A stretch of DNA of 24,000 nucleotides from Bradyrhizobium sp. CCGE-LA001 (GCF_000296215.2 NZ_CP013949.1:7298248-7322247); one strand, 5' to 3'. Numbered from the stretch's first letter, positions 2,293 through 17,674 are shown. The notes: a model not told the origin generated them from the letters alone. Numbers and translations: made by a program.

Positions 2293-5200
2293 TCAGGTCA
2301 CCTCGTCACCGCTCGCGAGCATCTCGTTCAGCATCGCCTCGGCCTTGTGCTGAAGCGGCCGCGCGCCGTTTTCGGAGGCGATCGCGATGGCGGCACGCAG
2401 GGAAGCGCGGATGGCCGCCTTGCTTTCGGCATCGGAGGGCGGCGTCACCACGGCTTCGCCGAACAGGGCCTCGGCCTCGAGGCCCGAAAACCCCTGCTGC
2501 CGCGCCGTATTGCGGGCCTCGCGCAGCATGTTCTGAGCGGCCCTGACGTCGCCGGACCGGTGGGCGGCCAGCGCCAGATAGATCGAGCTGCGCAGCACCG
2601 CCGAGGTATATCCGACCGCCTTGGCCTCTTCGCGCGCCTCCGTCAGCATGCCCCGCGCCCGGTCGAACAGTCCCTGCTCCAGATAGGCGATGCCGAGATG
2701 GCAGGCGAGCACCGGCACGAACAGGCGGATGCCGTGCTTCTGCGCGAGCACGAACCCGTCTTCGAGGATGGACGCAGCGGCGGCCGGATTGTTCTGCCCG
2801 AGCTTCAGCCAGCCGCCACTATAGGCGGCGGCGACGCGGTCATAGGGACGGCCGGTCTCCTCCGCGATCGCGGCGGCCTGTTGCTGGAGCCCCTCGGCCG
2901 CATCGAGCTCACCCATGACGGTGTGGGTGAAGCTCTTCATCATGCAGCAGAGCAGCAGCAGATAGCTCGGCGTCGTCCCGATCGGAGCGCGGGCTTGCGG
3001 ACCCGCCAGCTGGGTGCGCGCCAGCGCCAATGTCCGTTCGGCTTCGGGGTAGCGGCCGGCGAGGAAATAGGCCTGCCCGAGACCGTACCGGGCTAGATTG
3101 AGCCAACCCGGATTGTCCCATTCCTGAGCGAGGCGGACCACCTCTTCCGAGACAGCGACGGCTTCGACCGGCGCTCCGTAGAAGTTTTGCGCGCCGGCTC
3201 GAACCGTCATCGCGGCGACCTTGCGTCCGATATCGTCGATCCCATCCGCCCGCCGTTCGGCATCCATTCCAAGGTCGAGCCACTCGGCGACCTGGCCGGA
3301 CGCGATGAACGCCGCGCGGGCCTCCATCCGCAGATCGATGGCATCGGCCTCCCGCGAAGGCGTCATCGGCGTCTTGTCGAGCGAGCCCATCGCAATCTCG
3401 AAATAGCTGGCCGCGTCGGAAAACGCCGACCGGCTCAGGCATTTTCGCCCTGCGCTCTTGCCGTGACTGAACGCCTTGTACCAATCGCGGGCCCGCACGG
3501 CGTGATAGCACAGCGTATCGGGTTGATCCGCGCCTGCTCCATCGCCCTCCAGCCTCGCAAGAATGCGCGCGTGGATGGCTTCGCGCACCTTCTCGACCAT
3601 CGAGTCATAGGTCACCTGGCGGACCATCTCGTGCCGAAACTCGAGCACATCGTCCAGTTCGCTGTCGATCCTCACCAGCAGCTCGGCGCGATCGAGCGCC
3701 GCAAGGCAATCCTGAAGGACGCTTTCGGGCAGCTCGGCGAGGTCTCGCAGCGTGGCGACGCTCGATCGCCGTCCCAGCGCTGCCGCGATCTGCAGGATGG
3801 CGCGCTCCTGGCGCGACACGCGATCGAGGCGCGCCGCGATCACGCCCTGGATGCTCGAGGGAATGCCCAGCTCGTCGATCGGACGCATCAGCGCGAGATC
3901 GCCCCACTGGCCGTGGAGCGTTCCGCTGTCCCGCAAACCCCGGCACACCTCCTCGATGAACAGAGGGACATTTGCCGTGTGCGAGATGATGCGATTCTTC
4001 AGATCGTCGTTGGCCGCGGAGGGTCCGAGCATGTCGGCGAGCATGGCTAGCCCCGAGTCGTGGTCGAGCGGTTGCATCGCGACGACCTCGGCATGGCAGC
4101 GCGCAATCCACACCGGCATGCCGTTGGGCCTGGAGGTGAGGAGGACGAGAAGACCTGGAGCCTGAAGCGACGCTATCGTGGCCATGACCGCATCGCTGGC
4201 CCGATCGATCCAGTGCAGATCCTCGAGCAGAAGGATGGTTCGTTGACGACGCGCGATGCTCTCGATGACGGCGCAGCTTGCATCGGAGATCGCGCGTCCC
4301 CGGGCGTGAGGCTCGAGCTGGGACCAGCGAGGATTCGTCGTCGGCAGATCGAGCACCGCGTCGAGGGCGCATTGCGCAATCTCTCCGAGATCCTTCCGCG
4401 GATCCGACGGGCTGTCGGAATCCTTTGCGGCGGCCTCCAGGGCGGACAGCAGAACACGCTTGAGGGTGCTGAACGGGGCCCCCTTGAGGTTCGGGCTGCA
4501 CTCGGCGTTGATCAGGCGCCAACCACGGGATCTGAGCTCCTGGACGAATTCGTGCGCGAGCCGCGATTTGCCGATGCCCGCGTCGCCGAGCAGCAGGACC
4601 GTCCGCCGGCCCGTTCTGGCGCTCTCGACGGCACGGGCCAGCAATGCCCGCTCCGTCGTACGATCGACGAACCGCGAGACGCTGCGGGCACGCCGCACCC
4701 GCCAGCTCGACAAATCGCTCGCCCCCACGATGCGGTAGACCGGCACGGCCTGATTGAAGCCGCGCAGCGGCTTGCCGCCGAGATACTCGAATCGGACATG
4801 CCCTTCGGCAAGCTCCTGGCACGCTTTCGACACGTAAATCTGATTCGCCTCCGCCGCAGATTCCAGGCGGGCGGCCAGATGCTGGGCGGCACCGCCGATT
4901 TCGTAGACCTTGGAAAACTCGCTGGAGACCATGTAGGCGACGACATGACCCGAGTGCAGACCAACCCGGACCTGAAGCCCGGGATCGCCCAAGCCGACGA
5001 CACGCCGGACCAATTCGATGGCCGCATGGCAGGCCAGGGGGGCATGATTGTCGTCCGCGATCGGAGCGCCGAACACCGCAGAAACGCCGTCGCCCAGCTC
5101 CTTGCTGACGATGCCTCCGAACTGACGCACCGCGCCTCTCATAGCGGCCAGCGCCGGCTCCAGGCGCGAGACCGCCTCCTCCGGATCGAGATCGGCGACA

Positions 5201-5346
5201 AGTCCGGTGGAATCGACGACGTCGGCACGGAGAATCGTCACGAACCGGCGTTCGTTGTCCGGCTCGGAACGGCGCACGGCCACCCCGCAATTGGAGCACC
5301 AGCTATCGCCTGGGTCGATCGCCGACTGACACGCGACACACTGCAT
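2293..5346 (-). CDS. Multidomain signalling protein: N-terminal zinc-ribbon, class III adenylate/guanylate cyclase domain, AAA/STAND-type P-loop ATPase, C-terminal TPR-like helical repeats
   Basis: Large ORF; the track gives 2293..5412 with a TTG start. I prefer the ATG at 5346, which gives MQCVACQSAIDPGDSWCSNCG (a CxxC...CxxC ribbon) at the very N-terminus. The cyclase core is RRFVTILRADVVDSTGL...SKELGDGVSAVFGAP...VRVGLHSGHVV. The Walker A motif is LLLGDAGIGKSRLAHEF, with Walker-B-like ILLLEDLHWID. The C-terminal third has repeated A/L/G-rich helical pairs (YFLAGRYPEAERTL, GIAYLEQGLFDRARGML) typical of TPR. Confidence 0.85.
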   Translation of the reverse strand: MQCVACQSAIDPGDSWCSNCGVAVRRSEPDNERRFVTILRADVVDSTGLVADLDPEEAVSRLEPALAAMRGAVRQFGGIVSKELGDGVSAVFGAPIADDNHAPLACHAAIELVRRVVGLGDPGLQVRVGLHSGHVVAYMVSSEFSKVYEIGGAAQHLAARLESAAEANQIYVSKACQELAEGHVRFEYLGGKPLRGFNQAVPVYRIVGASDLSSWRVRRARSVSRFVDRTTERALLARAVESARTGRRTVLLLGDAGIGKSRLAHEFVQELRSRGWRLINAECSPNLKGAPFSTLKRVLLSALEAAAKDSDSPSDPRKDLGEIAQCALDAVLDLPTTNPRWSQLEPHARGRAISDASCAVIESIARRQRTILLLEDLHWIDRASDAVMATIASLQAPGLLVLLTSRPNGMPVWIARCHAEVVAMQPLDHDSGLAMLADMLGPSAANDDLKNRIISHTANVPLFIEEVCRGLRDSGTLHGQWGDLALMRPIDELGIPSSIQGVIAARLDRVSRQERAILQIAAALGRRSSVATLRDLAELPESVLQDCLAALDRAELLVRIDSELDDVLEFRHEMVRQVTYDSMVEKVREAIHARILARLEGDGAGADQPDTLCYHAVRARDWYKAFSHGKSAGRKCLSRSAFSDAASYFEIAMGSLDKTPMTPSREADAIDLRMEARAAFIASGQVAEWLDLGMDAERRADGIDDIGRKVAAMTVRAGAQNFYGAPVEAVAVSEEVVRLAQEWDNPGWLNLARYGLGQAYFLAGRYPEAERTLALARTQLAGPQARAPIGTTPSYLLLLCCMMKSFTHTVMGELDAAEGLQQQAAAIAEETGRPYDRVAAAYSGGWLKLGQNNPAAAASILEDGFVLAQKHGIRLFVPVLACHLGIAYLEQGLFDRARGMLTEAREEAKAVGYTSAVLRSSIYLALAAHRSGDVRAAQNMLREARNTARQQGFSGLEAEALFGEAVVTPPSDAESKAAIRASLRAAIAIASENGARPLQHKAEAMLNEMLASGDEVT

Positions 5347-5634
5347 TTCCGTGCCTTCAAAAGCTGCAGCGCCGTCGCTTGTCGACCGGCGCTCGCAAGG
5401 AGCCCGGCGCAAGATTACCCATCGAAAGAGTCATGGCAATCGAACTTGCACGCCGTACGGCGCCATCACCGATCCGCAGCTCTCTGGACGAAGCACAATT
5501 TCGAGTGATAGCAATTGCACGCGCGAAATATGGGGCCGCGCGTTCTAGGGGCGCCGCGGCTTTTCTTCTGGCCGACGAGCTTTGCTGGGCTGCACGTCAC
5601 CCCGATTGATTAGAACATATCGAAGGGCAAGGCG

Positions 5635-6126
5635 ATGGGCGGCAAGACATATAGCGGCAAGGCGTTCAGGGATTTGATGAACTGCAATTACTACCCCCTG
5701 GCGAACATGAAGAGGAGCGTGGCCAAGCTCAAAGCGTCGGACGACATCGATCTGCCGACCCTTGAATATGGCCAGTACCACCTGATCCTGACGCCGCCAT
5801 CGAAATGGCCGCAGGGAAGTGCCAAGTACTGGCACAAGGAGAAGGGCCGGGCTCGCCTCGACCTCAGCACCCAACCGAACACGGTCCCCCTATCGCGGGA
5901 CGAGCCCGGCGTGATCCCCCTGACGCGATGCGACCTGCTCGATGCCTGCGTCCGGAAGTGCTTCAACTCCGAGCCGCCGATCCCGATGAAGACCAACATC
6001 ATCGTCCATGCGCCGAACGACGCCTATGCCCACCGGCACGAGATCCGGCTGGAATGGGAATACAAGAAGGGCTCGGACAAGCCGACACTGCTCCATCTGA
6101 CGATGGTCTGTCCGCACAGATCGTGA
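5635..6126 (+). CDS. Hypothetical protein (163 aa), no recognisable domain
   Basis: The ORF has strong G/C bias at third codon positions and a balanced, K/D/E-containing composition, unlike the Arg/Pro/Gly-rich shadow ORFs around it. AAGG lies about 5 nt before the ATG. No motif was recognised. Confidence 0.55.
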   Translation: MGGKTYSGKAFRDLMNCNYYPLANMKRSVAKLKASDDIDLPTLEYGQYHLILTPPSKWPQGSAKYWHKEKGRARLDLSTQPNTVPLSRDEPGVIPLTRCDLLDACVRKCFNSEPPIPMKTNIIVHAPNDAYAHRHEIRLEWEYKKGSDKPTLLHLTMVCPHRS

Positions 6127-6334: not shown

Positions 6335-6361
6335 GATGATTCATCCCGCTCTCGTCGCACC

Positions 6362-9300
6362 TTAGTCGCAATAGCAGAACGCGTAGACTGCGCCGATCTT
6401 GGCAATGTGGAGGTCTGCGCTGGTCTTTCGCGACGTGCTGTCCGCGTTGGCCCTGAGAATGGTCGTGGCGCCCTGGATCTGCGTGCTCGAGCTGGTGCGC
6501 GTCTCGGCGCGGTCGATGTCGAAATGCAGGTAGCGATATTCGCCGCGCAGCGACCATCGCTGGGTCAGCTTGAACTCGCCGCCCGCGCCAGCCGTATAGC
6601 CCGCCACCCACTTGCCGTTGGGCCCGTTGACGCCGCCGGGGTCGGGAAAGGTGAAATGGCCGAGCGCCAAGCCGCCGACACCGTAGAGCATCAGCTTCGG
6701 GGTGACGAGATAGCCGGCCCGGCCGAACACGCCGACGTTCGAGCGCAATTGCTCACTGGCCTGCATCGCCGTCGGATTGACACTCGTGGTCACGACACCG
6801 TTGAGAACTTGACGGGTATTGCTCGTCTGCTCGCCGTTCATCTTGAAGGCAACATCCGAGAAGAGCGTGCCTTCGATCTGACCGCCGGCCACGATATTGC
6901 CGGCTCGCCAGTTGTAGCCTGCGAACAGATCGACCATCGAGCCCGTGGTGTCGCCGGCGGCACTGCCCCGGGTCGTCGTATTGCCGACGAAATCAGTCGT
7001 CTGCACCGCACCGTTGAAATTCTGCTGGGCAGAGTCGGCAGTCGAGGCCAGGATCTGTCGGGCACGGCCCGCGCCGGCAGCGAAATAGGCGCCGAGATAG
7101 GGGCCTGCCCAATGGTCGCTGGGGGCGCCAGGCAGCGCCGCCATGGCTGATCGCGGTCCTCCTTCACCGAACCTATAGACCATGCCGATCTTTCCGGTGT
7201 GGAAGTCGGCGTTGATCTGGCGAGTGGTGCTGTCGGTGGAGAGAGAGGTGCTGGAAGATCCGGTCGATTGCGTGCTCGATGCGAAGTTGCTGCCTTCGTT
7301 GCGGCCAAAGCCGTAGTGCGTATAGCGATATTCGCCGCGCAGCGACCAGTTGCCTGTCAGCTTCACCTCGCCGCCGGCGCCCAACGTGTAGCCGGCCACC
7401 CACTTGCCGTTGGCGCCGCCGCTGCTGAAGTCCCCGTCAGCGTAAGTGAAATGTCCCAGCGCCAGGCCACCGAGGCCGTAGAGCAGCACGTTCGGCGTCA
7501 CCAGATATCCGGCCCGGCCGATGACGCCGACGTTCGAACGCAGTTGCTGCTGGGTCCGGTTGCCGGCCGTTTGCGAGCCTGAAGACGTCGAGGTGACGGC
7601 TCCGTTCGAGGTGTCAACCGAGGTGAATGTGTGAGGGCCGATGGTCTTGAACGTCACGTCGGAAAAGACCGAGCCTTCGATCTGCCCGCCGGCCACGACA
7701 CTTCCGGCGCGCCAATTGTAGCCGGCGAAGAGATCGACCATCGAACCCGTCACGTCGCCGACGGGACGGCCGTTCGTCGATTGGGTGCTGGTGGACGTCG
7801 TGGTCCCGACGATGGTGATCGTGCTGGTGCTGGTGTTGTTCGTCGCGATGGTTTCCGCGGCACGTCCGGCGCCGGCACCGAAATAGGCGCCGATATAAGG
7901 TCCCGCCCAGCCGTCGTTCCAGGCCGGGCTCGGCAGTGCCGCCATCGCCGACCGCGTTCCTGACGCGCCGAATTGATAAACCAGTCCGATCTTGCCGACG
8001 TGGAAATCGGCGTCGATATGCCGCCCGTTGACGGTGCTGTTGGTGGACGTGGTGGTGCCGCCACCTGACACGGATGTCTGCGAGCTGCCCGTCGGCTCGT
8101 TGCCGTCATATCCGAAATGCATGTAGCGGTATTCACCGCGCAGCGACCAGCTGTCCGTCAGCTTGACCTCGCCGCCCGCGCCCGCGACGTAACCAGCCAC
8201 CCATTTGCCGTTCTTGCCGCCGACGCGGACTTCCGAGTCGGGATAGCCGTCGGGATAGGTCAGATGCCCCAGCGCGAGGCCGCCCAGGCCATACAGCAGT
8301 ACACTCGGCGTCACCAGATAACCGGCCCGGCCGATCACGCCGACGTTCGAGCGCAACTGCTGCCGGTCCTCGATCCTGTTCGTCCCTGAGCTTGTCGAGG
8401 TGACGACGCCGTTGTTGGTCGAAACCGAGCTGTATGCCTCGTTGCCGACCGTCTTCGTGGTGACGTCGCTGAACAAGGTGCCTTCGATCTGCCCGCCGGC
8501 CACGACATTGCCGGTTCGCCAGTTGTAGCCGGCGAACAAATCGACCATCGAACCGGTCATATCGCCGGCGAGATTGCCGAATCCCGATTGCGTGAACGCC
8601 GACGTCCCGCCGACAGTGCTGACACTGCCTTCGTCGTCGATTCTCGTGGAGGTCTGTCTTGCGCGCCCGGCGCCGGCACCGAAGTAAGCACCAATATAGG
8701 GTCCGGCCCAGCTGTCACCCCAGGCGCTAGCGAATGAAGCCCCGCGTCCCGCCGGCGGTATCGCCGCCATCGCGGACAGCGGTCCGGAATCACCGAATTG
8801 GTACACCAGACCGATCTTTGCCAGGTGGAAATCGGCATTCGTCCGTGTCGAGGAAGATTCGCTGCTGGTCGAGACAAACGTGGTTGCGCCCGTCGCCGAG
8901 CTGGCCGTTGAGTTGGTGGCTGCGCTCCTGTTGAAGCCGAAATTCAGGTACCGGTATTCGCCGCGCAGCGACCAATTTCCGGTCAGCTTCAACTCGCCGC
9001 CGGCGCCGACCGTGTAGCCGGCCACCCATTTGTTGTTGCCGCCACCGAAAGGATCGGCGCTGTCGGCAAAGGTGAAGTGACCGAGCTCGAGGCCGCCGAG
9101 GCCATACAGCAGCAGGTCCGGACGCGCGAGAAAACCGAGCCGGCCGATCAGCCCGACTCGCGAGCGCAGCTGCTGGTTGCTCTGCACGGTCGCCGAGCCG
9201 GCAGTCGTCGAGGTCACCACACCGAGCAGCACGTTGGTGCTGACACTGTTGAACGTCTGGTTGCCGAACGGCTTCAACGCGACATCGGAAAAGACCGTGC

Positions 9301-9664
9301 CTTCAACCTGCCCGCCGGCCACGATATTCCCGGCTTGCCAATTATACCCCGCGAACAGGTCGACCATCGAACCGGTCACGTCGCCCGAAAGAATGCTCGC
9401 AGTCGTCCCGACCAAGGTCGAGTTCGACGTCACCACGCCGGCGTTGGTCGAGAGTGAGCTGTTGGCGAAACTGCCAGTCGAGGAGTCCGTCGCATGTCCG
9501 GCGCCCGCACCGAAATAAGCGCCGATATAGGGCCCGGCCCAGCTGTTGACCCAGGCCGGTCGGGGTGGCGCCTTCACAGTCAGGTCGGCGGCTAGAGCTC
9601 CGGCAGAAACCATGATCGAGGCGCCAGCCAATGAAGCGCCCGTCAGTGATGTCAGCTTTTTCAC
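6362..9664 (-). CDS. Outer-membrane protein made of four tandem Omp25/Omp31/RopB-like (OmpA-like, 8-strand) beta-barrel modules behind one signal peptide
   Basis: One uninterrupted ORF; the track gives 6362..9877. I place the start at the in-frame GTG at 9664, preceded by GGGGGGTTGGG. This gives MKKLTSLTGASLAGASIMVSAGALA-AD, a normal signal peptide, whereas the 71 residues upstream are non-protein-like. Four units each begin W-A-G-P-Y-[IL]-G-A-Y-F and each end AD[FL]H..KIG.VY.F. Confidence 0.8.
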   Translation of the reverse strand: MKKLTSLTGASLAGASIMVSAGALAADLTVKAPPRPAWVNSWAGPYIGAYFGAGAGHATDSSTGSFANSSLSTNAGVVTSNSTLVGTTASILSGDVTGSMVDLFAGYNWQAGNIVAGGQVEGTVFSDVALKPFGNQTFNSVSTNVLLGVVTSTTAGSATVQSNQQLRSRVGLIGRLGFLARPDLLLYGLGGLELGHFTFADSADPFGGGNNKWVAGYTVGAGGELKLTGNWSLRGEYRYLNFGFNRSAATNSTASSATGATTFVSTSSESSSTRTNADFHLAKIGLVYQFGDSGPLSAMAAIPPAGRGASFASAWGDSWAGPYIGAYFGAGAGRARQTSTRIDDEGSVSTVGGTSAFTQSGFGNLAGDMTGSMVDLFAGYNWRTGNVVAGGQIEGTLFSDVTTKTVGNEAYSSVSTNNGVVTSTSSGTNRIEDRQQLRSNVGVIGRAGYLVTPSVLLYGLGGLALGHLTYPDGYPDSEVRVGGKNGKWVAGYVAGAGGEVKLTDSWSLRGEYRYMHFGYDGNEPTGSSQTSVSGGGTTTSTNSTVNGRHIDADFHVGKIGLVYQFGASGTRSAMAALPSPAWNDGWAGPYIGAYFGAGAGRAAETIATNNTSTSTITIVGTTTSTSTQSTNGRPVGDVTGSMVDLFAGYNWRAGSVVAGGQIEGSVFSDVTFKTIGPHTFTSVDTSNGAVTSTSSGSQTAGNRTQQQLRSNVGVIGRAGYLVTPNVLLYGLGGLALGHFTYADGDFSSGGANGKWVAGYTLGAGGEVKLTGNWSLRGEYRYTHYGFGRNEGSNFASSTQSTGSSSTSLSTDSTTRQINADFHTGKIGMVYRFGEGGPRSAMAALPGAPSDHWAGPYLGAYFAAGAGRARQILASTADSAQQNFNGAVQTTDFVGNTTTRGSAAGDTTGSMVDLFAGYNWRAGNIVAGGQIEGTLFSDVAFKMNGEQTSNTRQVLNGVVTTSVNPTAMQASEQLRSNVGVFGRAGYLVTPKLMLYGVGGLALGHFTFPDPGGVNGPNGKWVAGYTAGAGGEFKLTQRWSLRGEYRYLHFDIDRAETRTSSSTQIQGATTILRANADSTSRKTSADLHIAKIGAVYAFCYCD
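6365..9541 (-). repeat. Four in-frame direct repeats of ~750 nt (coding repeats, one beta-barrel module each)
   Basis: Module coordinates, from the conserved Trp codon to the VY.FG end: 8792-9541, 7967-8710, 7166-7909 and 6365-7111. The Trp codons fall at residues 113, 390, 657 and 923 of the track ORF (spacing 277, 267 and 266 aa). Blocks conserved in all four are TGSMVDLFAGYNW..GN/S.VAGGQ.EG..FSDV, QQLRS.VG..GR.G.L, L.YG.GGL.LGH.T., KWVAGY..GAGGE.KLT..WSLRGEYRY and AD.H..KIG.VY. At the DNA level, TATTC[GA]CCGCGCAGCGACCA recurs near 6537, 7327, 8130 and 8955. Confidence 0.85.
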
Positions 9665-9673
9665 CCCAACCCC

Positions 9674-9691
9674 CCAATTCCAATTCCAATT
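9674..9691. repeat. (CCAATT)x3 tandem hexamer; (AATTGG)x3 on the coding strand of the OMP gene
   Basis: CCAATTCCAATTCCAATT was read directly. It sits 10-27 nt upstream of the proposed GTG start (9664), directly abutting the G-rich RBS. It is the source of the WNWNWNW peptide in the over-extended ORF. Confidence 0.7.
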
Positions 9692-9892
9692 CCAGAACAA
9701 GAAAATGTTACCGGAAGAGCAGATGAAAAGCCGTTGCGCGCATACAACAAGTTCGACGTTTCGGAGTCGAAGCCGACCTAAGTTATTGATACTTATATGA
9801 AATGCGTCAGGTTGTCGCACTTGGAAGATGCAACTTAATCCTGCACAGCGCGACAACATTGTCGCGCGAGGCCGCATCAGCTCGGCGCCTCA

Positions 9893-9931
9893 TCCCAAAA
9901 CAAAAATGGCCCGCATCAAGCGGGCCATTTT
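9893..9931 (-). terminator. Rho-independent terminator downstream of the tRNA-Met 3' end
   Basis: AAAATGGCCCGC (9903-9914) and GCGGGCCATTTT (9920-9931) form a perfect 12-bp stem with loop ATCAA. On the minus strand the stem is followed by TTTTTGTTTT. It lies 27 nt after the tRNA CCA end (9958). Confidence 0.75.
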
Positions 9932-9957: not shown

Positions 9958-10002
9958 TGGTTGCGGGGATAGGATTTGAACCTATGACCTTCAGGTTATG
10001 AG
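9958..10002 (-). pseudogene. 3' half only (anticodon loop to CCA) of an initiator-type tRNA-Met(CAT) gene; probable att junction of the integrated element
   Basis: The minus strand reads CTCATAA-CCTGA-AGGTC-ATAGG-TTCAAAT-CCTAT-CCCCGCA-A-CCA. This gives an anticodon loop with CAT, the 3' anticodon stem, a variable loop, a complete T-arm, the 3' acceptor strand, the discriminator and CCA. It closely parallels the remembered E. coli tRNA-fMet 3' half (GGGCTCATAACCCGAAGGTCGTCGGTTCAAATCCGGCCCCCGCAACCA). The 5' partner strands (TCAGG and [CT]GCGGGG) are absent from the 80 nt upstream, which is AT-rich unrelated sequence, so the gene is not intact. Confidence 0.75.
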
Positions 10003-10152
10003 TATGAATTTCACAGTTTTCTGGAGTTATCCCAAGACCTCTTGCTTTACCTAAGCCACTTAAAATACTAGTGAAATCTAGCATCGCGATTTCCCGAGAT
10101 ATCCTGCCATTCCCGTTACGGTGGCGACTCGGTGGCGATTCTGGAGGTCAAT

Positions 10153-11391
10153 GTGCCGGTACTGAAGCTGACGCGGAGAACGATCGACGCAATCGAACCC
10201 GTCGACAAGCAGACCATCTTTTACGACAGCGAATTGACCGGTTTTTGCCTCAAGGTCCTTCCCTCCGGCGTCCAGAGGTGGTGCGTCGAATACCGTAGCG
10301 GCGCCGGCGGGCGGAGCGTCGGCAAGACGCGGATGGTCCTTGGGTCCGCCTCGAGCATGACGCCCGACCAGGCGCGCGCTAGGGCCAAATCAACCCTCGC
10401 TGCTGTGGCTCTCGGACAGGATCCCGCCCGCAAGCGCTCGACCGAACGTGCCATGCCAACCTTTGCCGAGTTTGGCGAGCGCTATCTCAGGGAGGAGGCC
10501 GCGGCAAAACTAAAGCCGCGAACGGTCGTCAACTACCGTATCTACCTGCGTAAGCACGCCGCCCCCCTCCTGGGCACCCGCAAGCTCGATGCGCTCGATA
10601 GTGCCGCCATCTCGAAGATGCACCGGAAGATCGGCAAGGAGACGCCGATGACCGCGAATCGGGTCGTCGAGTTCATCGGATCCGTCTTCCGGTACGCTGC
10701 CGTCTGCGGCCTCGTTACCAAGGGGCACAATCCCGCGAGTCATGTCCAAGCATTCCGCGAGCAGCGCCGCGAACGGTTCCTGAGCTCACCGGAACTAGGC
10801 CGCCTGGGAGACGCCATTCGCGAAGCGGAAACGGTGGGCATTCCGTGGGCTGTGGACAAAGACCAGCCGAACGCGAAGCACATCCCGAAAAACGGTCGCA
10901 CGAAAATCGGGCCTCACGTAGCGGCTGCATTGCGCCTCTTGATCCTCACTGGCGCCCGACTGCGCGAAATCCTCGAGCTCAAGTGGGAGTATGTTGACCT
11001 CCAGCGCGGCCTGCTCCTGCTCCCTGACAGCAAGACGGGACAGAAGGCCATCATTCTCAATGCACCGGCTCTCGACATCCTTGGCAAGATTCCCAACGTC
11101 GATTGCTACGTGATCGCCAGCGATATCAAGGGCCAGCCTCGGCACGACCTGAATAAGCCTTGGAAGCTCGTGAGCACGCGATCAGGCCTCGAAGGCGTAA
11201 GAATCCATGACCTGAGACATACCCACGCCAGCTATGGCGCAGGCGCAGGCTTTGGGCTGCCCATTATCGGGAAGTTGCTTGGCCATTCGCAGCCCGCGAC
11301 CACCGCCCGGTATGCGCATCTGGACAATGATCCGTTGCGGCGAGCATCCAACCAAATCGCAAAGGCACTAGCGGAAGCCATGGGCGACTGA
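10153..11391 (+). CDS. int: Tyrosine recombinase / phage-type integrase with N-terminal DUF4102-type arm-binding domain
   Basis: The track ORF is 10132..11391. I prefer the in-frame GTG at 10153, 5 nt after GGAGG (10143-10147). The N-terminus (V)PVLKLTRRTIDAIEPVDKQTIFYDSELTGFCLKVLPSGVQRWCVEYR is the typical arm-binding domain of tRNA-targeting island integrases. The catalytic signature is LILTGARLREILELKW (Arg), HDLRHTHAS (His-x-x-Arg) and LLGHSQPATTARYAHL (His...Tyr nucleophile). Confidence 0.9.
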   Translation: MPVLKLTRRTIDAIEPVDKQTIFYDSELTGFCLKVLPSGVQRWCVEYRSGAGGRSVGKTRMVLGSASSMTPDQARARAKSTLAAVALGQDPARKRSTERAMPTFAEFGERYLREEAAAKLKPRTVVNYRIYLRKHAAPLLGTRKLDALDSAAISKMHRKIGKETPMTANRVVEFIGSVFRYAAVCGLVTKGHNPASHVQAFREQRRERFLSSPELGRLGDAIREAETVGIPWAVDKDQPNAKHIPKNGRTKIGPHVAAALRLLILTGARLREILELKWEYVDLQRGLLLLPDSKTGQKAIILNAPALDILGKIPNVDCYVIASDIKGQPRHDLNKPWKLVSTRSGLEGVRIHDLRHTHASYGAGAGFGLPIIGKLLGHSQPATTARYAHLDNDPLRRASNQIAKALAEAMGD

Positions 11392-11405: not shown

Positions 11406-12131
11406 GTGTCCTTAAACAACAAAGTGAGTGAGTTCACTGATATGGATGATTCCGACTTTCACCTCGTCCAGCCACCGTTTGCCCAACTAGATGAAGCGCT
11501 ATGGTGGATCGAGTTCAAGCAGATTGAAGAAGCCAAGCGAGACGGTTGGACATCAACACTTGAGAGCGCAAATCGGCTTGAAGCCGCTTTGCTCAATGGC
11601 ACACTTCAGGGATACGGCTCCCTGGATGCCGGGCCTGTGCAGCTCATCCAACAATGGACGTGGACCGAGTTTGAGTTTCTCCCCGCTGATCGCGATGGCC
11701 GGCGCATCGAAAAAAAGGTGGATTATATTCCCCAGTTCATAGTCCGCTCCCTCAAAGCCTACCGCGCGGAGGCGCTTAAAGACTTGAGCCAGCCGGCCTC
11801 CAAGCTCCTGCCAGGCCTGAATGAAAATGAACCTGGGTTTCACAGGGTAATGGACCAAATTGTCTTTCTCGAATGCGATCTGCGGCGAGTATTTCCTACG
11901 GAAATCGTTCAAACTAAAGAAGACCCGCCGCTCGATAAAAAGTACCCCAGGTTCCTAAAGGAAATTGAGGGCGAAAAGTACCTCCACAGTCCCGCGCCGG
12001 TCGGGTTCGACCACGTCTTTGGTCTACTCATTGAGTATTTGGAACGGACGGGGCAGCTCAACTCCGTCGACAGTTCGGTCCGGAAGGGGCTTCAACGCCA
12101 CTACAAGGAATTCAGCAAGCACGGACAATGA
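11406..12131 (+). CDS. Hypothetical protein (241 aa), island-borne, low G+C
   Basis: A long ORF in the most AT-rich part of the window, with a protein-like composition rich in E/K/L/F/W. It starts at GTG 11406, 15 nt after the integrase stop, or alternatively at ATG 11442. No motif was recognised. Confidence 0.55.
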   Translation: MSLNNKVSEFTDMDDSDFHLVQPPFAQLDEALWWIEFKQIEEAKRDGWTSTLESANRLEAALLNGTLQGYGSLDAGPVQLIQQWTWTEFEFLPADRDGRRIEKKVDYIPQFIVRSLKAYRAEALKDLSQPASKLLPGLNENEPGFHRVMDQIVFLECDLRRVFPTEIVQTKEDPPLDKKYPRFLKEIEGEKYLHSPAPVGFDHVFGLLIEYLERTGQLNSVDSSVRKGLQRHYKEFSKHGQ

Positions 12132-12234
12132 GACAAAGCAAGACATGTCCGCACTTGTCTGAACAGCTCTCTGCTTTCCCCTTGTAGGACTGGGTTGCCG
12201 GCAGCGCGTCGGCAATTCAAAGGGGAAAAACTTG

Positions 12235-12456
12235 ATGATCGAAAAAGCAACCGAGTCGTCCAAATGGCTGACTCGGAAAGAAGCCGCCGCCTACTTGCGA
12301 CTCGGTGAGAGCACGCTTGCAAAGCTGTTTGTCTCTGGCGACGGACCACCGGCCATCAAGATTGGGCGGTCCGTTCGCTATTCTGCGCTCGACCTGAACG
12401 CGTGGATGGGCTCTCGCCGGCGACGCTCGACGTCTGACAGCGGCTCCGCCGCGTAA
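12235..12456 (+). CDS. Small HTH DNA-binding protein, AlpA/excisionase-like (MerR-type HTH_17)
   Basis: The sequence WLTRKEAAAYLRLGESTLAKLFVSGDGPPAIKIGRSVRYSALDLNAWM matches the 'L+.+EaA.yLg.s..Tl.........P....g....Y....L..W' pattern of prophage/island excisionase-type regulators. The ATG at 12235 is preceded by AGGGGA (12221-12226); the track starts one codon earlier at TTG 12232. Confidence 0.7.
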   Translation: MIEKATESSKWLTRKEAAAYLRLGESTLAKLFVSGDGPPAIKIGRSVRYSALDLNAWMGSRRRRSTSDSGSAA

Positions 12457-12466
12457 GGTTGGGCCA

Positions 12467-13108
12467 ATGGACGTACGAGCCTTTAACCGCGAGAAGATGC
12501 AGTGGCTCAATGCCATCAGTCTTGAGTGCGAGGTCAACTCTACCGCCTTTCGGGTCGCTTATCTTATTGCCGATCATCAAAATTCAGTGGCTGGATTCGC
12601 TTGGCCATCCCTCGCTCGGCTGGCCGGGAAAGTCTGCCTATCGAATAAATCGATTCAGCGGGCGGTCGGGCAGCTGGAAAGACTGGGATGGCTTGAGGTG
12701 GAGCGAAGAAGGGAGCGTTCTAACCGATATCGCTTGAGATGGCCGCCTGGACGAGCCCCGGCGCCCAGGCCAACCGAAGGCAATGATGCAGACAAAACTG
12801 TCCTCGTGGAGAGACAAGAACGTCTCACCGGAGGGGACAAAACTGTCCGCCAATCCTACTTAACTAAATCCCTTAAAACCTTCTCAAGTCGGCTTGGCGG
12901 AGGAAGGCAAGGAACTCGGTTCGCCGATCAAGGCAAATTCGAAGCTGAGATCATTGGGCGATTTGGACCGGGCATGATCGACGTGCTTGAAAAGCTGAAC
13001 GAGATCGACCCCCGCGCCGTCGAACAGCTTTGCCGGCGGGCGAAAAATGGAACCTTGTCACGCGTCGACATTGCCGCTGCTGAGCTGACCGTGGCGCAAA
13101 ATCAATAG
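12467..13108 (+). CDS. Winged-helix DNA-binding protein (island replication/regulatory-type HTH), function unknown
   Basis: The sequence FRVAYLIADHQNSVAGFAWPSLARLAGKVCLSNKSIQRAVGQLERLGWLEVERR has the helix-turn-helix-wing layout seen in phage and plasmid initiator or regulator proteins. It follows the AlpA-like gene by 10 nt. Confidence 0.55.
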   Translation: MDVRAFNREKMQWLNAISLECEVNSTAFRVAYLIADHQNSVAGFAWPSLARLAGKVCLSNKSIQRAVGQLERLGWLEVERRRERSNRYRLRWPPGRAPAPRPTEGNDADKTVLVERQERLTGGDKTVRQSYLTKSLKTFSSRLGGGRQGTRFADQGKFEAEIIGRFGPGMIDVLEKLNEIDPRAVEQLCRRAKNGTLSRVDIAAAELTVAQNQ

Positions 13109-13117
13109 GACCGAAGA

Positions 13118-13492
13118 ATGACAGAATTTGACGAGATATTGTCGAGAGCGCTCGACGCGGCGCGATATTACTACCCGCGTTTGAGCGCAGAGGTCTATGT
13201 CTTTCCAAAGCCAGCCGATGCGGCGCAGCCGCCCGAACCCGCCGCATCGCAACTTCGCGAAAGGAGCTGCCGCATCGCTATCACATGGGTGGAGAGATTA
13301 TTGACGAATGGCGAGTTTGACAAAGGGGCCATCACGATCAGTCAGTTGCGGTCTCGGATTTTTCGTAGCGACCGCATCTTGATTCCGCGCGAGATCATTC
13401 TTGCGATCGCAGTGTACAAATGCGTTGAGATATTCGTCGGCGGACATGATGTCTGGCTCGGGAAGCTCTGGGATGGACCGGTACCATTTTAG
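13118..13492 (+). CDS. Hypothetical protein (124 aa)
   Basis: The ORF starts 9 nt after the previous stop, is co-oriented with it and has a reasonable composition. No motif was recognised. Confidence 0.45.
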   Translation: MTEFDEILSRALDAARYYYPRLSAEVYVFPKPADAAQPPEPAASQLRERSCRIAITWVERLLTNGEFDKGAITISQLRSRIFRSDRILIPREIILAIAVYKCVEIFVGGHDVWLGKLWDGPVPF

Positions 13493-13732
13493 TTGTCTCT
13501 CGTGCTGCGGGAGGGTTTTTAATGTATCCCACGGCCGCGATGTCGGCGCAGAGACGCGGGAGGCTTCCTTGTCGATGCCAATCGAGGCCGAGGGCGAATG
13601 GGGGGACTGCTTCTCATCTCTAAATTCTAGGTAAGGCCATCACAGAATGTCCCCGTGGGGAAGAAGCTGGTCATCCCGCTTGCGGGTCACATCGTCACCG
13701 AGAACAGTTGTTAGCCCGTCACCTCGGACAGG

Positions 13733-16105
13733 TCAGCGATTGCGTGGACGGAACGTAAAGCGGGCCGCTTCGGCGAAAGCCTGAGCGAAGCGCTCGCTGC
13801 CGGTCTTGCGGTCCACAAAGATTTCATCCTCTCTTTGAAGCGCATTCGCGGAAATATCCGGGCCGGTGTCAGTCGCGCGCGTCTCCGACGGGTCGCGGCC
13901 GGCGGCGGCGACGTATACGGCGCGCAATGCGGTGAGGACGGCGGCTCGCATGCCTTCGTCGTTGAGGCGTTCACGTAACCGGATCTGGGCATCATCTCGA
14001 CCTTCCGCGACGGGTTCTTTGTTAGGAAGGAGACAAGCCACGAGCGGATGGAGGCCATCGGTCGGCAGGTTCTGTCCAGCGATTTCGGCGACCAGCGCCG
14101 CGGTTTCCGTGGTGAGCCCGACCTCGCAGGCGAGAGCAAAAAGCAAATACGGATAGAGCGGTGTCTTGCCGACGCCGCCCGCCTCCAAGTCCGCAATGCC
14201 CGTGGGCCCACGCATCACGCGGATTAGGCGGTAGGTATTGACCAGGCGCTTCAGCCCGCGCGGTGACTTTCCTGCAAGCGGCGCCATGGCCGCCAGCGCT
14301 CGCCGCTCGAATTTTGACATCGTGGCTCGTCGTTGCGCCGCGGTTTGAAATAGCGTGGGATCGGGCGCCACGTCGATCGGCACCATGTTGTCCTGGCCCT
14401 GCTGCCCGCCTTTGTCACCGGCGGCCTGCCCCGGAGAGTCTGCGGGCTCTTCCTCCTGTTTATCGATGCCGCTGACGAATGTCTCGACCATTCCGGGATT
14501 GCTGATGGGCTGCATCCAGATCGGCAGCTGGAAAATCTTTTCAAGGTAATCGGCGACAGTTGCGCCAGCGGGCTGTACCGGTTGGTCGGCATCACCCGGT
14601 TGCCCGGGCACCGCAAGCTGGCCGCTGTAGACCTTGCCGACAGCGCGATGCAGCCAGCGGGCATCGACGGCAACGACTACGACGAAAAGGTCAAAGGCAA
14701 GGAGAAGGTGGATTGCCTGCAGGACCTGCACAACGTGCTGCTCGGAGCAGCGGTCAAGATCGTCGATATAGACGATGATGCGTCGCACCTCGGGAACGTG
14801 GGTGAGATCGGCTACTTTGTCTGCTGCGGGCTTGGAGTTGCCTTCGGCGGGTTTGACCTCCGCCGGCGCTGCCGCACGCTTCTCGTGCATGATCTGCTCG
14901 AGGGTTACGAAGCACCGCCTGACCGTCGCGAGAAGCCCAAGCTTCTTGCGCACCTCGGCAAGCTCCGGCGAGTAGGTAATGAAGTAGCGCAGCAGACCTT
15001 CGCGAGATCGCCCCTCGGCCGCGAGGCTGTAAGAGGCCGCGAACTCCGTTGCCTTCTTCTGCTCGGCGATCATGGCGTCGAGCTTCTCGCGTTCCTTCTT
15101 GACCAACTCAGAGGCTTCGCGCCGCTCATTGTTTAGCTCGGCAGCTCGCTTCTCCTTGCGGGCGAGGAATTCGGCGGCTAGCGAGAGGATCGGCGTCGCG
15201 GTGCCGATCGCGATCGCAGCCGTGCCGATCAGCGTTCCGAGCACAGCAACGGAAGGAAAGGCACTAACGATGTAGGACCAAATCTCCGGGACACGTCCCC
15301 AACCGAGATACCAGACGGCCCCGCCGACTCCGATGGTAAGAACGGCGAGGGCTGCAGTGAGCCCATAGATGATGCCCCGGCTGAGACTGCGGCGCAGCAG
15401 CACGAAGAGCAGCCCGGCGCGGCTCGGCAGATCGAACAACCCCGACAGGAGCGACGCAAGCTTTTCCGGATCGCGCTCGCCGGTCGGTACACCGCACGCC
15501 TGCAACAACTCGTCGAGACGCTTCTTGTGGGCTTCGGCCTTTTCGACTTCGCGCCTCTTGTTCGGGTCCTTTTTGTCTTTATCGCTGAGTTCCTTCGGGG
15601 TTGCTTTTGTGATGAGTTCTTTGGCCATCTCGCCTGCCACGGTCGCTGCCACTGGCTCGTGCTCGAGGCCTACGAGCTTTGTCTCGGCCGCCTGTATAGC
15701 CTCGCGCTGAAGTTCGATAGCGCCTTCTACCAGCGGCGAAGCTTCGGCGTCCCTGCGCAGTCGCTTGGCGATCTCTGTGATCAGGCCGGTCCTAAGCTTA
15801 CCGTCCGGTGCGCGGCCGTCGATGGCATCGGCAAGCTGATCGAACAGCTCTGCTGTAAGGGAAGCCCAGAGGTTTTCGGCATCGGCATGACTCCAAGCAT
15901 CGAAGTTAATCTGCACCACCTTCGGCGCCGCCGGCACACTCGGTTCCGGCGACGTGCGCGCGGCAATTTGATCCTTTAGCAGGCGGATAAGCGTACTCTT
16001 TCCCGAACCCCAAGGACCGAACACTCCAACCGCGACCGGCGGCTTGAGGTCATCGAGCAGTAACAGATCAGCAAGCGCCGCCGCATCGCTCCCGGTGTTG
16101 AGCAA
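13733..16105 (-). CDS. KAP-family P-loop NTPase with transmembrane helices inserted inside the NTPase domain
   Basis: The Walker A motif is VGVFGPWGSGKSTL. The Walker B motif is RRIIVYIDDLDRCSEQHVVQVLQAIHLLL, about 410 residues later; DDLDRC is the KAP family signature. In between lie charged coiled-coil-like stretches and hydrophobic segments (GLLFVLLRRSLSRGIIYGLTAALAVLTIGVGGAVWYLGW and IWSYIVSAFPSVAVLGTLIGTAAIAIGTATPILSLAAEFL). The called start is TTG at 16105, with GAGG 5 nt upstream. Protein-like KAP N-terminal sequence continues upstream in the same frame without a start codon (see findings). Confidence 0.85.
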   Translation of the reverse strand: MLNTGSDAAALADLLLLDDLKPPVAVGVFGPWGSGKSTLIRLLKDQIAARTSPEPSVPAAPKVVQINFDAWSHADAENLWASLTAELFDQLADAIDGRAPDGKLRTGLITEIAKRLRRDAEASPLVEGAIELQREAIQAAETKLVGLEHEPVAATVAGEMAKELITKATPKELSDKDKKDPNKRREVEKAEAHKKRLDELLQACGVPTGERDPEKLASLLSGLFDLPSRAGLLFVLLRRSLSRGIIYGLTAALAVLTIGVGGAVWYLGWGRVPEIWSYIVSAFPSVAVLGTLIGTAAIAIGTATPILSLAAEFLARKEKRAAELNNERREASELVKKEREKLDAMIAEQKKATEFAASYSLAAEGRSREGLLRYFITYSPELAEVRKKLGLLATVRRCFVTLEQIMHEKRAAAPAEVKPAEGNSKPAADKVADLTHVPEVRRIIVYIDDLDRCSEQHVVQVLQAIHLLLAFDLFVVVVAVDARWLHRAVGKVYSGQLAVPGQPGDADQPVQPAGATVADYLEKIFQLPIWMQPISNPGMVETFVSGIDKQEEEPADSPGQAAGDKGGQQGQDNMVPIDVAPDPTLFQTAAQRRATMSKFERRALAAMAPLAGKSPRGLKRLVNTYRLIRVMRGPTGIADLEAGGVGKTPLYPYLLFALACEVGLTTETAALVAEIAGQNLPTDGLHPLVACLLPNKEPVAEGRDDAQIRLRERLNDEGMRAAVLTALRAVYVAAAGRDPSETRATDTGPDISANALQREDEIFVDRKTGSERFAQAFAEAARFTFRPRNR

Positions 16106-17112
16106 GTCGGCCTCGGTCCGATCATTCGCAAACGCATGGGTTTCGCCAGCGGCGCGGGGGGCAGGCTTACCTGCCGCATCTCGTCTAAGATCGGGCCCCA
16201 GGACTCGAGCTTGTCGCCCAGGTTTACGTAATTCTTAATTTCGTCCTGAACAATCCGCGTCAATGTATCGCGCCAGCTGATAAAGTTCAGTCCAGCGGCA
16301 TCGCTGGCTACACGCCCTATCTCTTCAAGGACGAGTCCGGCGAGGAAGTGCCGCACGCCGCCTTCAAGGTACGAGACATTTGTCTTTTCGCGCAGCAAGG
16401 ACATACGAAGAAGAATGGCTACGAGTTCCGGACCAACGATCACGTTGCTCGCACTCGCATCAATTGTCGTTTCGGACGGGAAATCGAACTGCCCAAGCTG
16501 AGTGGGCGTTGCACTGGAATATTCGCGCACTATCCTCGGCAGGAATACGCTCGGCCTACTCGCCATACCTTGCCCAATCTGCCGGTGCAGCAGCGCATCG
16601 AAAACCTGACGTGGCCGCAAAATCCGATCGTGGTCGAGCCGGGTCGCAGCAATCCGAAGCAGCCGTCCAAGGTTTGCCGAAACATAGGGCACGGCGCTCT
16701 CAGGCCAGGTGAACGCGAGAATGTCCTGTAGAGCAGCGCCACGGTCTCGTGCCGGCGCCAGCGGATCCGCCAGAGGAGCGATACCGTTCTGACCGATCGT
16801 GCCGGTCCCCTGCAGCGTATCTGGTTCTTCACCAGCAGCCTGCTGCTCTCTACTGCCCGCTTGTTCGTCGAAATCGGATTCGCTCTCGTTCTTCGCCTTT
16901 CCTGGGCGTCGATCGACCCTCCGACGCAATTCTGAAAGTTGACTTTCCAATTCGATCTGCCGCGACGTCTTGGACCATCCAGGCTCCTCGGACGGCGACG
17001 CGCTTGATGAGACGGATGTCACATACGGCTTATTTCGGGCAGCCTCGAGCGCTGCGATCTCCCGTTCAAGGTTCGCTATCTGGTCATGCAGGTTACTTGC
17101 GAGTTCTTGCAT
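15976..17112 (-). CDS. Hypothetical protein: N-terminal coiled coil, acidic low-complexity linker, ~230-aa helical domain; partner of, or fused to, the KAP NTPase
   Basis: The track ORF is 15976..17178. I prefer the ATG at 17112 (MQELASNLHDQIANLEREIAALEAARNK). Codon usage is consistent down to about 16160. The last ~60 codons (PMRLRMIGPRPTCSTPGAMRRRLL...) overlap the KAP gene out of frame and look non-protein-like, so the true 3' end is uncertain. Confidence 0.55.
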   Translation of the reverse strand: MQELASNLHDQIANLEREIAALEAARNKPYVTSVSSSASPSEEPGWSKTSRQIELESQLSELRRRVDRRPGKAKNESESDFDEQAGSREQQAAGEEPDTLQGTGTIGQNGIAPLADPLAPARDRGAALQDILAFTWPESAVPYVSANLGRLLRIAATRLDHDRILRPRQVFDALLHRQIGQGMASRPSVFLPRIVREYSSATPTQLGQFDFPSETTIDASASNVIVGPELVAILLRMSLLREKTNVSYLEGGVRHFLAGLVLEEIGRVASDAAGLNFISWRDTLTRIVQDEIKNYVNLGDKLESWGPILDEMRQVSLPPAPLAKPMRLRMIGPRPTCSTPGAMRRRLLICYCSMTSSRRSRLECSVLGVRERVRLSAC

Positions 17113-17558
17113 TGCATCGCCCTCGTGCCGGCATTCAAGGTCGAGGCAGGTGAAACCGCGCCCGCGGCGACGCCTCAACGGTCGGATGCATGTAATCTAA
17201 TTCACAATCGTGACCTGTGCTACACACCGGCGTCGCGAAGAGCCGGTGGATTGCGCAACGGCGCGCAGGCGAAGGGCTGCGGCGGCACAACGCCCGCCGA
17301 CCCGCGATCATTGAGGCGTTCAGAAACTCAGGCGGAAAGCCTGAATGTGCGGAAAATGAGTCCGCAATTGGTGCGTGATTGGCCTCGCAAAGAATCTGCT
17401 TTCTGGCGATTAGCAGACTGCGGATTGAGTTCAGGACCTGCGCTTGTTAGCCCGAACCGAAGCGGTTTGAGGGAGGATGCGGGTCCCTCCGAGGACGCCA
17501 CCCCCTACGGCACAAACGCGCCCCAGAAAATCACCAGCCGCAGAGGGCGGAAGCTGGG

Positions 17559-17588
17559 TTGACAAGGTTGACACGTTGACAGTCGACA
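17559..17588 (+). repeat. Cluster of TTGACA hexamers (3 exact plus 1 TCGACA) at 9-, 8- and 7-nt spacing
   Basis: TTGACAaggTTGACAcgTTGACAgTCGACA was read directly. It lies in the ~500-bp gene-free spacer between the two minus-strand cargo units. The hexamers are on the + strand, antisense to both flanking genes. Confidence 0.6.
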
Positions 17589-17674
17589 ACAAGCGATCAT
17601 TAAGACAATTCATTTCCATTGCGCGACATCGATCAGGATGGTCCGACGGATGAGAAAGTGCGCATTTGGCGGTA

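Follow-up and report, generated by a model that had tools for sequence, protein, structure and literature searches.

A Bradyrhizobium outer-membrane protein with four tandem modules, probably four separate eight-stranded β-barrels on one chain

Introduction

Proteins that carry several outer-membrane β-barrels on one chain have been catalogued computationally. Solan, Pereira, Lupas, Kolodny & Ben-Tal (PNAS 2021, PMC8346858) described 12,643 multibarrel proteins in 186 families and 34 architectures, among which tandem 8-stranded barrels (poly-8) are the commonest. These families arose mostly by lineage-specific amplification and have a narrow taxonomic range; their linkers have a median length of 22 ± 13 residues, and one type, "22-8", occurs mostly in Rhizobiales (PMC8346858). 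Here, we describe a gene for an outer-membrane protein (OMP) with four tandem barrel modules, located at 6362-9664 of a 24,000-nucleotide stretch of Bradyrhizobium sp. CCGE-LA001 (NZ_CP013949.1:7298248-7322247). This whole stretch is called the window, and positions are counted from its first letter.

The catalogue left a mechanistic question open: whether one C-terminal signal is enough, or whether the β-barrel assembly machinery (BAM) inserts such proteins barrel by barrel (PMC8346858). In the literature searched, no experimental work on any poly-8 protein was found, nor any solved structure, demonstration of the mature form or study of biogenesis for multibarrel OMPs. The first-pass annotation of the window regarded every possible arrangement of the four modules as unusual biology. 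That judgement is out of date, given the 2021 catalogue and the prevalence of tandem 8-stranded barrels in it.

Results

One uninterrupted gene with four repeated modules

The gene lies on the minus strand and is uninterrupted, with 1100 codons followed by a stop at 6362-6364. The longest open frame on this strand is 6362-9877 (1171 aa). The start codon is the GTG at 9662-9664, which is supported because DNA similarity to orthologous loci, spanning from about 9689 down to 6357, starts only at about 9689, and because the orthologues annotated at 1100 aa have the same N-terminus as the window protein, MKKLTSL. The earlier description of one frame of about 1100 codons behind a single signal peptide is thus borne out, with the strand now added. 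Read by eye, the N-terminus has the layout of a Sec signal peptide (MKK, a hydrophobic stretch and an ALA-AD junction). The predicted cleavage at ALA/AD would make Ala-Asp the mature N-terminus (ADLTVKAPP), and the family consensus retains AADLP. The parts of the gene are as follows.

6362..9664, minus: complete gene (open frame, extent of homology, orthologue N-termini)
9590..9664, minus: predicted Sec signal peptide, aa 1-25, MKKLTSLTGASLAGASIMVSAGALA (by-eye reading of the sequence)
9542..9589, minus: mature N-terminal periplasmic segment, aa 26-41, ADLTVKAPPRPAWVNS (AlphaFold2 predicted local distance difference test, pLDDT, <50)
8795..9541, minus: barrel module 1, aa 42-290 (module hidden Markov model, HMM, positions 1-247; PF13505 29.4 bits; 8 long strands modelled)
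8711..8794, minus: linker 1, aa 291-318, GDSGPLSAMAAIPPAGRGASFASAWGDS (pLDDT <50 at 292-316; SAMAA conserved)
7970..8710, minus: barrel module 2, aa 319-565 (module HMM; AlphaFold2 strands; PF13505 27.5 bits)
7910..7969, minus: linker 2, aa 566-585, GASGTRSAMAALPSPAWNDG (pLDDT <50 at 567-580; A575/A576 invariant)
7169..7909, minus: barrel module 3, aa 586-832 (module HMM; PF13505 30.7 bits; 8-strand pattern when folded alone)
7112..7168, minus: linker 3, aa 833-851, GEGGPRSAMAALPGAPSDH (pLDDT <50 at 835-848)
6377..7111, minus: barrel module 4, aa 852-1096 (module HMM; AlphaFold2 strands; PF13505 26.1 bits)
6365..6376, minus: C-terminal tail CYCD, aa 1097-1100 (family consensus FCYCD; common to single-barrel relatives)

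Each hallmark motif noted earlier is located at four positions in the 1100-aa product: WAGPY at aa 42/319/586/852, LFAGYNW at 103/376/645/913, WSLRGEYRY at 231/506/773/1037 and KIG.VY.F at 283/558/825/1089. The modules are 249/247/247/245 aa long and recur with a period of 277/267/266 aa; the units of 249-277 aa first proposed are four in number as stated, and their lengths are those of modules plus linkers. The linkers (28/20/19 aa) are rich in Pro, Gly and Ala, and the modules are bounded by an N-terminal segment of 41 aa and a tail of 4 aa. Between modules, identity is 55-65% for protein and 64-70% for DNA, and only about 60% of the residues identical between modules use identical codons. 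From these values, the repeat is real, far beyond chance, and old.

At the level of Pfam, the modules belong to OMP_b-brl. PF13505 matches the whole protein with 81 bits in four stretches, and each module scanned alone scores 29.4/27.5/30.7/26.1 bits (E 4e-7 to 1e-5), in line with the four full-length matches that had been expected. The module HMM, built from the window's four modules, gives four non-overlapping matches over its positions 1-247, and the same span is covered in single-barrel relatives. For the window protein, every NCBIfam model stays below its own cut-off (best 36 bits against 220, and 33 against 60), and a sequence profile search against the PDB returned no match. The label "Omp25/OmpA-like" therefore stands for the Pfam superfamily and not for a specific Brucella Omp25/Omp31 orthologue, since only the superfamily-level model matches. 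The expectation that a barrel of this family ends at an aromatic β-signal does not apply to the last module, in which the aromatic residue is followed by the conserved CYCD tail.

Conservation, selection and integrity of the gene

Among 5.8 billion proteins searched, 68 relatives were found. All 29 complete homologues (997-1131 aa, 40-91% identity) contain exactly four complete modules by the module HMM; the named ones come from Bradyrhizobium yuanmingense, B. cosmicum and Bradyrhizobium sp. USDA 336, the last encoded on an 8.2-Mb contig. Public annotation gives the orthologues no more specific name than "outer membrane protein" or "opacity protein-like surface antigen". Orthologues thus keep the four-module architecture rather than being split into separate genes. 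Shorter matches either start or end within a module on short contigs or are frameshift splits: P0075 (one module and an out-of-frame tail) shares a 14.6-kb contig with P0021 (three modules), and P0081 with P0016 is a second such split, both pairs being copies from metagenomes or metagenome-assembled genomes. The three-module matches were accordingly rejected as natural three-barrel variants of the four-barrel family, being contig-end cuts or frameshift splits.

Against the closest relative, positional module pairs are 86-93% identical and non-positional pairs 54-64%. In comparison with B. yuanmingense, the ratio of nonsynonymous to synonymous substitution (dN/dS, Nei-Gojobori) comes to 0.20-0.22 for the whole gene and 0.13-0.31 for individual modules. 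Over four orthologues, it is 0.04-0.06 in the barrel cores and 0.26-0.41 in the predicted surface hairpins. With a core dN/dS of about 0.05 in every module, all four modules are maintained by selection. The earlier view of an evolved fusion as opposed to a recent duplication is upheld.

Together, these observations confirm that the gene is intact, and is neither an assembly artefact nor a set of split genes. Assemblers can be misled by repeats, and the family does contain frameshift-split copies (the two pairs above) and a truncated copy in B. tunisiense, so that separate paralogous genes merged by mis-assembly or sequencing error, or a pseudogene, had to be considered. The chance of this is close to nil. 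Inter-module DNA identity of just 64-70% is too divergent for collapse or chimera formation, the same 1100-aa frame recurs in independent isolates on large contigs, and 3.3 kb at 62-65% G+C (in a window that ranges over 56-68% per kilobase) contain neither stop nor frameshift. Mis-assembly, four separate genes and a pseudogene are effectively ruled out by the orthology, the core dN/dS and the independent assemblies, of which the 8.2-Mb contig is one; the suspicion of an assembly chimera did not survive them.

The B. tunisiense copy (L009 6034-7038) is a four-barrel gene reduced to the end of module 3 and module 4. Its annotated product, P0079 (273 aa, "outer membrane protein"), was considered as a single-barrel homologue and rejected, as it is the remnant of this truncated gene. 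It is an example of decay in the family and a trap in searches for single-barrel homologues.

Predicted structure of the chain

The structure prediction proposed for the full chain was carried out with AlphaFold2 on a 30-sequence family alignment, and gave a mean pLDDT of 80.9 and a predicted template-modelling score (pTM) of 0.73. Each module is modelled as 8 strands separated from the next module by a disordered linker. Hairpins L1, L2 and L4 have strands of about 30 residues, and loop L3 is short and poorly predicted. Values of pLDDT <50 are confined to residues 1-39, the linkers (292-316/567-580/835-848), loops 202-208 and 474-482 in two modules, and the last three residues; helical turns appear in the model at residues 295-297 and 580-582. 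When linker 2 and module 3 are folded alone, the same 8-strand pattern is obtained with a pLDDT of 86. In Foldseek, the best target-normalised results for module 3 among the matches listed are the 8-stranded NspA, with a template-modelling score (TM) of 0.52, and Ail (0.44), both weak. The full chain gave only long alignments to 14-26-strand barrels in the PDB (root-mean-square deviation 23-34 Å, TM <= 0.26), which are uninformative on topology.

Strand pairing was also approached through covariation and cysteines. The mutual information between strand 1 and strand 8 is 37.7 within the same module against 33.5-34.6 for shifted pairings. Of 113 relatives in which the last barrel is complete, 37 have cysteines on both flanks of that barrel (directly ahead of strand 1 and directly behind strand 8), also where it is the sole barrel, and 61 have them on neither flank; 10 of the 15 discordant relatives belong to the window's own clade, which kept CYCD and lost CC. 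In most other family members, linker 3 ends in CC immediately before the barrel. The co-occurrence of the flanking cysteines suggests, from sequence, a disulfide clamp across the barrel seam. As the N-side CC of four-barrel proteins is located in linker 3 and not at the protein N-terminus, it fits a clamp across the seam of the module 4 barrel, not module 4 closing onto module 1.

Single-barrel relatives, linkers and origin

In further searches, linker 2 with module 3 served as query, and HMMER was run exhaustively over 1.84 billion cluster representatives (2,779 matches at E <= 1e-3). Many stand-alone single-barrel relatives of about 290 aa were found. Identity to the modules is 41-48% for P0090, P0097, P0098 and P0096, 38-39% for P0100, and 49-50% for P0114 and P0117. 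Each of the first five spans the full module HMM and carries a signal peptide of its own; in all of these but P0100, that peptide ends in ..A/AD. Several single-barrel relatives have CC right before strand 1 (..PCCQ(A/G)W) and C-x-C right after strand 8 (..FCYCD or FCAC); the C-termini of P0098, P0114 and P0117 are CYCD(Y). In the wider family, two-barrel proteins (P0112, 58% identical and with a CYCD tail; P0126; P0129; P0151) and a three-barrel protein (P0116) also occur.

The linkers of the four-barrel proteins follow the pattern G-x-x-(G/R)-P-x-S-A-M-A-A-(I/L/M)-P-...-A-W-x-D-(S/G), which runs parallel to the N-terminus of the same proteins, ..S-A-G-A-L-A|A-D-L-P-V-K-A-P-P-K-A-A-W-x-D-S; in one sub-lineage, linker 3 reads SAMAAMPVKAAPRAACCDS. 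The SAMAA segment is near-invariant (A300/A301 and A575/A576 invariant, A840-A843 >= 90% conserved), and the rest of the linkers is variable. After each internal SAMAA, the Asp of the Ala-Asp motif is lost, and the linkers are without a hydrophobic h-region. On this parallel, the linkers appear to be relics of the signal-peptide c-region and mature N-terminal segment of an ancestral single-barrel precursor. The n-region, h-region and Asp would have been lost from them, with module 4 alone apparently keeping the ancestral C-terminal tail. In the proposed origin, a single-barrel gene of about 290 aa, with its own signal peptide, an N-terminal CC and a C-terminal CYCD, would have been amplified in tandem and fused in frame, with later partial concerted evolution between modules.

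In a neighbour-joining tree, the modules of the four-barrel proteins all fall into one clade that excludes the single-barrel proteins. Module 4 tends towards a position-specific clade, and modules 1-3 group by lineage in several branches (P0014; P0009/11/12). All four modules group by protein in P0037 and P0039, and the modules of P0018/P0019 group within their own lineage. This clustering of modules 1-3 excludes a simple ancient quadruplication with strict positional orthology and means that gene conversion or re-amplification has occurred. The simplest reading, given a constant count of four, would be an ancestral gene that already had four modules, which have since undergone intermittent gene conversion with one another; repeated re-amplification would be the less simple alternative.

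Four barrels, one barrel or a processed chain

Taken in aggregate, the best reading is that the modules form four separate 8-stranded barrels on one chain, and we consider this probable. Of the three arrangements raised in the first-pass annotation, it is the one favoured over a single 32-strand barrel and a processed polyprotein. It draws on the AlphaFold2 strand pattern with disordered linkers, on the cysteines flanking the last barrel, and on linker lengths of 19-28 aa that bracket the multibarrel median of 22. The end-to-end homology of the modules to proteins able to form only 8-strand barrels likewise appears to support it. Several observations weigh on the other side. Scanned alone, modules 2 and 4 fall just under the PF13505 gathering score (27.5 and 26.1 against 28.7 bits), and the Foldseek matches are weak, with TM <= 0.52 and a large root-mean-square deviation. 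The difference in mutual information is too narrow to count, with common descent as a confounder, and the cysteine argument is borrowed from relatives because the window's clade has lost the N-side CC of module 4. The near-invariant SAMAA in otherwise variable linkers is unexplained if the linkers are passive. Finally, one 32-strand barrel would account equally well for the pattern of strands and linkers taken alone, and the full-chain pTM of 0.73 is above expectation for four freely jointed domains.

In a giant barrel, strand 8 of each module would pair with strand 1 of the next, the linkers serving as long periplasmic turns. Strand 1 is nearly identical across modules, making swapped pairing chemically plausible, and the pTM implies confident relative placement of the modules. 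There is also precedent: an experimental fusion of two OmpX barrels yielded one barrel of 16 strands, and predictions include single barrels with 38-40 strands (Solan et al., PMC8346858). That fusion, however, needed a 2-residue linker, compared with the much longer and predicted disordered linkers here, and the modules match end to end stand-alone proteins of about 290 aa. A plug or cork domain for a very wide pore is missing, and the CC...CYC pair of the relatives flanks module 4 only. The strands are moreover Gly-rich (GAYFGAGAG, GLGGLALG, GAGGE), as is typical of tightly curved small barrels. On balance, we regard a giant barrel as unlikely. A polyprotein, cut in the periplasm at G-x-x-G-P-x-S-A-M-A-A/[I/L/M]-P to release four single barrels in a 1:1:1:1 ratio, would account for a SAMAA that stays nearly invariant at 40% family identity while the remainder of the linker varies. 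SAMAA has the Ala-X-Ala form and descends from a signal-peptide cleavage region, and every module retains its own β-signal. Yet the linkers are missing the h-region required by signal peptidase I, and the Asp is lost after internal SAMAA while the true N-terminus and single-barrel relatives keep Ala-Asp, so that released barrels would lack the peptidoglycan-anchoring N-terminus. Literature searches turned up no such OMP polyprotein, and SAMAA may be conserved for another reason, such as docking of chaperones or BAM, formation of a short helix, or gene conversion among the modules. The polyprotein is thus held to be quite improbable. There is likewise only a slim chance that SAMAA-[I/L/M]-P is a functional periplasmic processing or docking site, or that the linkers are read by BAM or chaperones for sequential hand-over of the barrels. 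Were processing at SAMAA to take place, the gene would be an outer-membrane polyprotein supplying four different barrels in fixed stoichiometry.

Proposed export, insertion and surface role

For four separate barrels on one chain, the precursor would be exported by Sec and cleaved after ALA25. BAM would then fold and insert the modules one after another, each as its own 8-stranded barrel, in four insertions that leave the linkers in the periplasm. A β-signal generally has the pattern polar-x-G-x-x-aromatic-x-aromatic. The KIG.VY.F last strand is present in all four modules, and its K240/G242/Y245/F247 are kept in 107/114/115/101 of 116 modules. That four β-signals are kept under purifying selection argues for separate BAM insertion of each barrel. 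This family can do without a free terminal aromatic, as the final aromatic is never C-terminal, including in the single-barrel relatives that end in CYCD.

The mature N-terminus may also anchor the protein. An Ala-Asp mature N-terminus is described as the motif for covalent peptidoglycan attachment in Hyphomicrobiales OMPs, in a passage of PMC12729407 that cites Godessart et al. 2021. The predicted N-terminus ADLTVKAPP carries this feature of peptidoglycan-tethered OMPs, and it is conserved in the family. It may be linked covalently to peptidoglycan by L,D-transpeptidases, giving one tether for a row of four barrels. Loss of Asp from the internal SAMAA relics is expected if these were never N-termini.

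On the outer face, three of the four extracellular loops of each barrel would form long Ser/Thr/Asn-rich β-hairpins (about 30 residues per strand) that project past the membrane. These hairpins evolve 5-8 times faster than the cores in the four orthologues. Long, fast-evolving hairpins of this composition suggest a multivalent surface-exposed function and argue against a pore. Multivalent adhesion, envelope shielding or a variable surface antigen would be the most plausible role, and a role of this type was suggested for poly-8 proteins by Solan et al. (PMC8346858).

Genomic context

The gene has two kinds of neighbourhood. In the window, the flanking features are as follows.

84-863, minus: GntR regulator, downstream side of the OMP gene
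1017-2222, plus: periplasmic binding protein, downstream side
2293-5412, minus: adenylate-cyclase/AAA_16/TPR protein, 1039 aa, downstream side
5635-6126, plus: unknown 163-aa open reading frame (ORF), no Pfam match, convergent with the OMP gene, DNA 88% conserved in Bradyrhizobium sp. 141 (L003)
9674..9694, minus: GGAATT hexamer repeat, 3 copies, then a G-run (Tandem Repeats Finder 3.5 copies, 100% match)
about 9909-9921: hairpin terminator, upstream of the OMP gene
about 9958-10059: tRNA-like remnant with a CTCATAA anticodon-loop-like sequence (Met-type CAT), T-arm and CCA end at about 9958-10007
10132-11391, plus: tyrosine integrase, upstream of the OMP gene
12467-13108: HTH_36 protein, putative island cargo
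13733-16105, minus: KAP-family P-loop NTPase, 790 aa, putative island cargo
19485-22265, minus: 926-aa protein with an N-terminal patatin-like phospholipase domain, putative island cargo

The locus of Bradyrhizobium sp. 141 is syntenic on the downstream side and, on the other side, up to 9969, where synteny stops within the tRNA-like remnant. The 2293-5412 protein, which adjoins the OMP gene in that strain as well, combines an adenylate/guanylate cyclase catalytic domain with an AAA_16 ATPase and TPR, resembling signalling proteins of the STAND (signal transduction ATPases with numerous domains) type. The tRNA-like remnant scores 21.5 bits with the Rfam tRNA model against a gathering score of 29, and ARAGORN found no tRNA there. 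Together with the integrase, it looks like the edge of an integrated element. Beyond it, 11406-23929 may be a defence-type island; the large ORFs at 15976-17178, 17675-18445, 18459-19418 and 22286-23929 have no Pfam match.

In USDA 336 and B. yuanmingense, an 89-91% identical gene lies in an unrelated neighbourhood (L001, L004, L005) with an AraC regulator upstream. There, similarity to the window is limited to 6357-9689, from about 25 nt before the start to 5 nt after the stop, and it begins exactly at the GGAATT repeat. Synonymous divergence (dS) to these copies is about 0.29, the same as to the syntenic copy of Bradyrhizobium sp. 141. It looks as though the gene was moved, or exchanged, as a unit without its promoter. 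Directly downstream in the alternative context lies a single-barrel OMP_b-brl gene (L001 13449-14279, 276 aa as called; L004 9245-10258) whose signal peptide reads ..HAASA/ADLGRAYTKAPP. The window lacks this gene, and the B. tunisiense copy is frameshifted.

The GGAATT repeat and a GGGGGG run lie 10-30 nt upstream of the GTG start. There are 3 tandem copies in the window, 2 in each of L001 and L004, and 5 with an additional offset copy in L003; a further locus, L006, has a degenerate version of the repeat. Such copy-number change could tune or phase-vary expression. No sigma-70 promoter was found by a consensus scan.

Comparison with known systems

Among single-barrel OMPs, those of the Brucella Omp25/Omp31 and Rhizobium RopB type share with the window protein the Pfam family, a predicted 8-strand barrel and a signal peptide that ends in Ala and is followed by Ala-Asp. 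They differ in having one barrel rather than four, the surface hairpins of the window protein are much longer and Ser/Thr-rich, and the similarity is at superfamily level only. The single-barrel proteins P0090, P0097, P0098, P0096, P0114 and P0117 (about 290-335 aa, soil metagenomes) are closer, with 41-50% identity over the full module, the strand motifs, the Ser/Thr-rich hairpins, the ..A/AD junction and, in most, the CC...CYCD cysteines. They differ by their one barrel and complete signal peptide of their own, and likely represent the ancestral state.

Tandem modules also occur in TonB-dependent receptor fusions of alphaproteobacteria (P0045-P0068), with 2-5 modules at 26-30% identity. In these, unlike in the window protein, the modules follow a 22-strand Plug/TonB_dep_Rec barrel, which makes them another family with another N-terminal partner, of the "22-8" type. 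Members are mostly about 1,300-1,900 aa long, for example from Methylocystis and Xanthobacteraceae, and most carry Plug and/or TonB-receptor domains; a Methylocystis bryophila example is annotated "TonB-dependent siderophore receptor", and P0049 (1,182 aa) and P0055 (907 aa) show modules only.

In architecture, the window protein resembles the poly-8 multibarrels (PMC8346858). Both have several full-length 8-strand domains behind one signal peptide, linkers of about 20 residues, a sorting signal per barrel, and a narrow taxonomic range following lineage-specific amplification of a single-barrel ancestor. The two superfamilies discussed in the catalogue are from Bacteroidetes and have 2-11 barrels, whereas the present family is alphaproteobacterial (Bradyrhizobium) and has exactly four. 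The caveat of Solan et al. that additional signals may be leftovers of a recent fusion is inapplicable here, because the β-signals persist at 40% identity under purifying selection.

Because the window protein has the sequence features by which Solan et al. recognise multibarrels, its kind is already known. The class was described computationally in 2021; the Bradyrhizobium protein adds a clear example, not a new principle, and overturns no current understanding. Its value is as an experimental model. The four-barrel family is a good test case for the BAM question: it is fixed at four, occurs in cultivable Bradyrhizobium strains and has kept a complete β-signal in each barrel under strong purifying selection, its ancestry is transparent, and it can be compared with single- and two-barrel relatives. 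A tethered Ala-Asp N-terminus would mean that four barrels share one tether, a new twist on the stapling of the Rhizobiales envelope.

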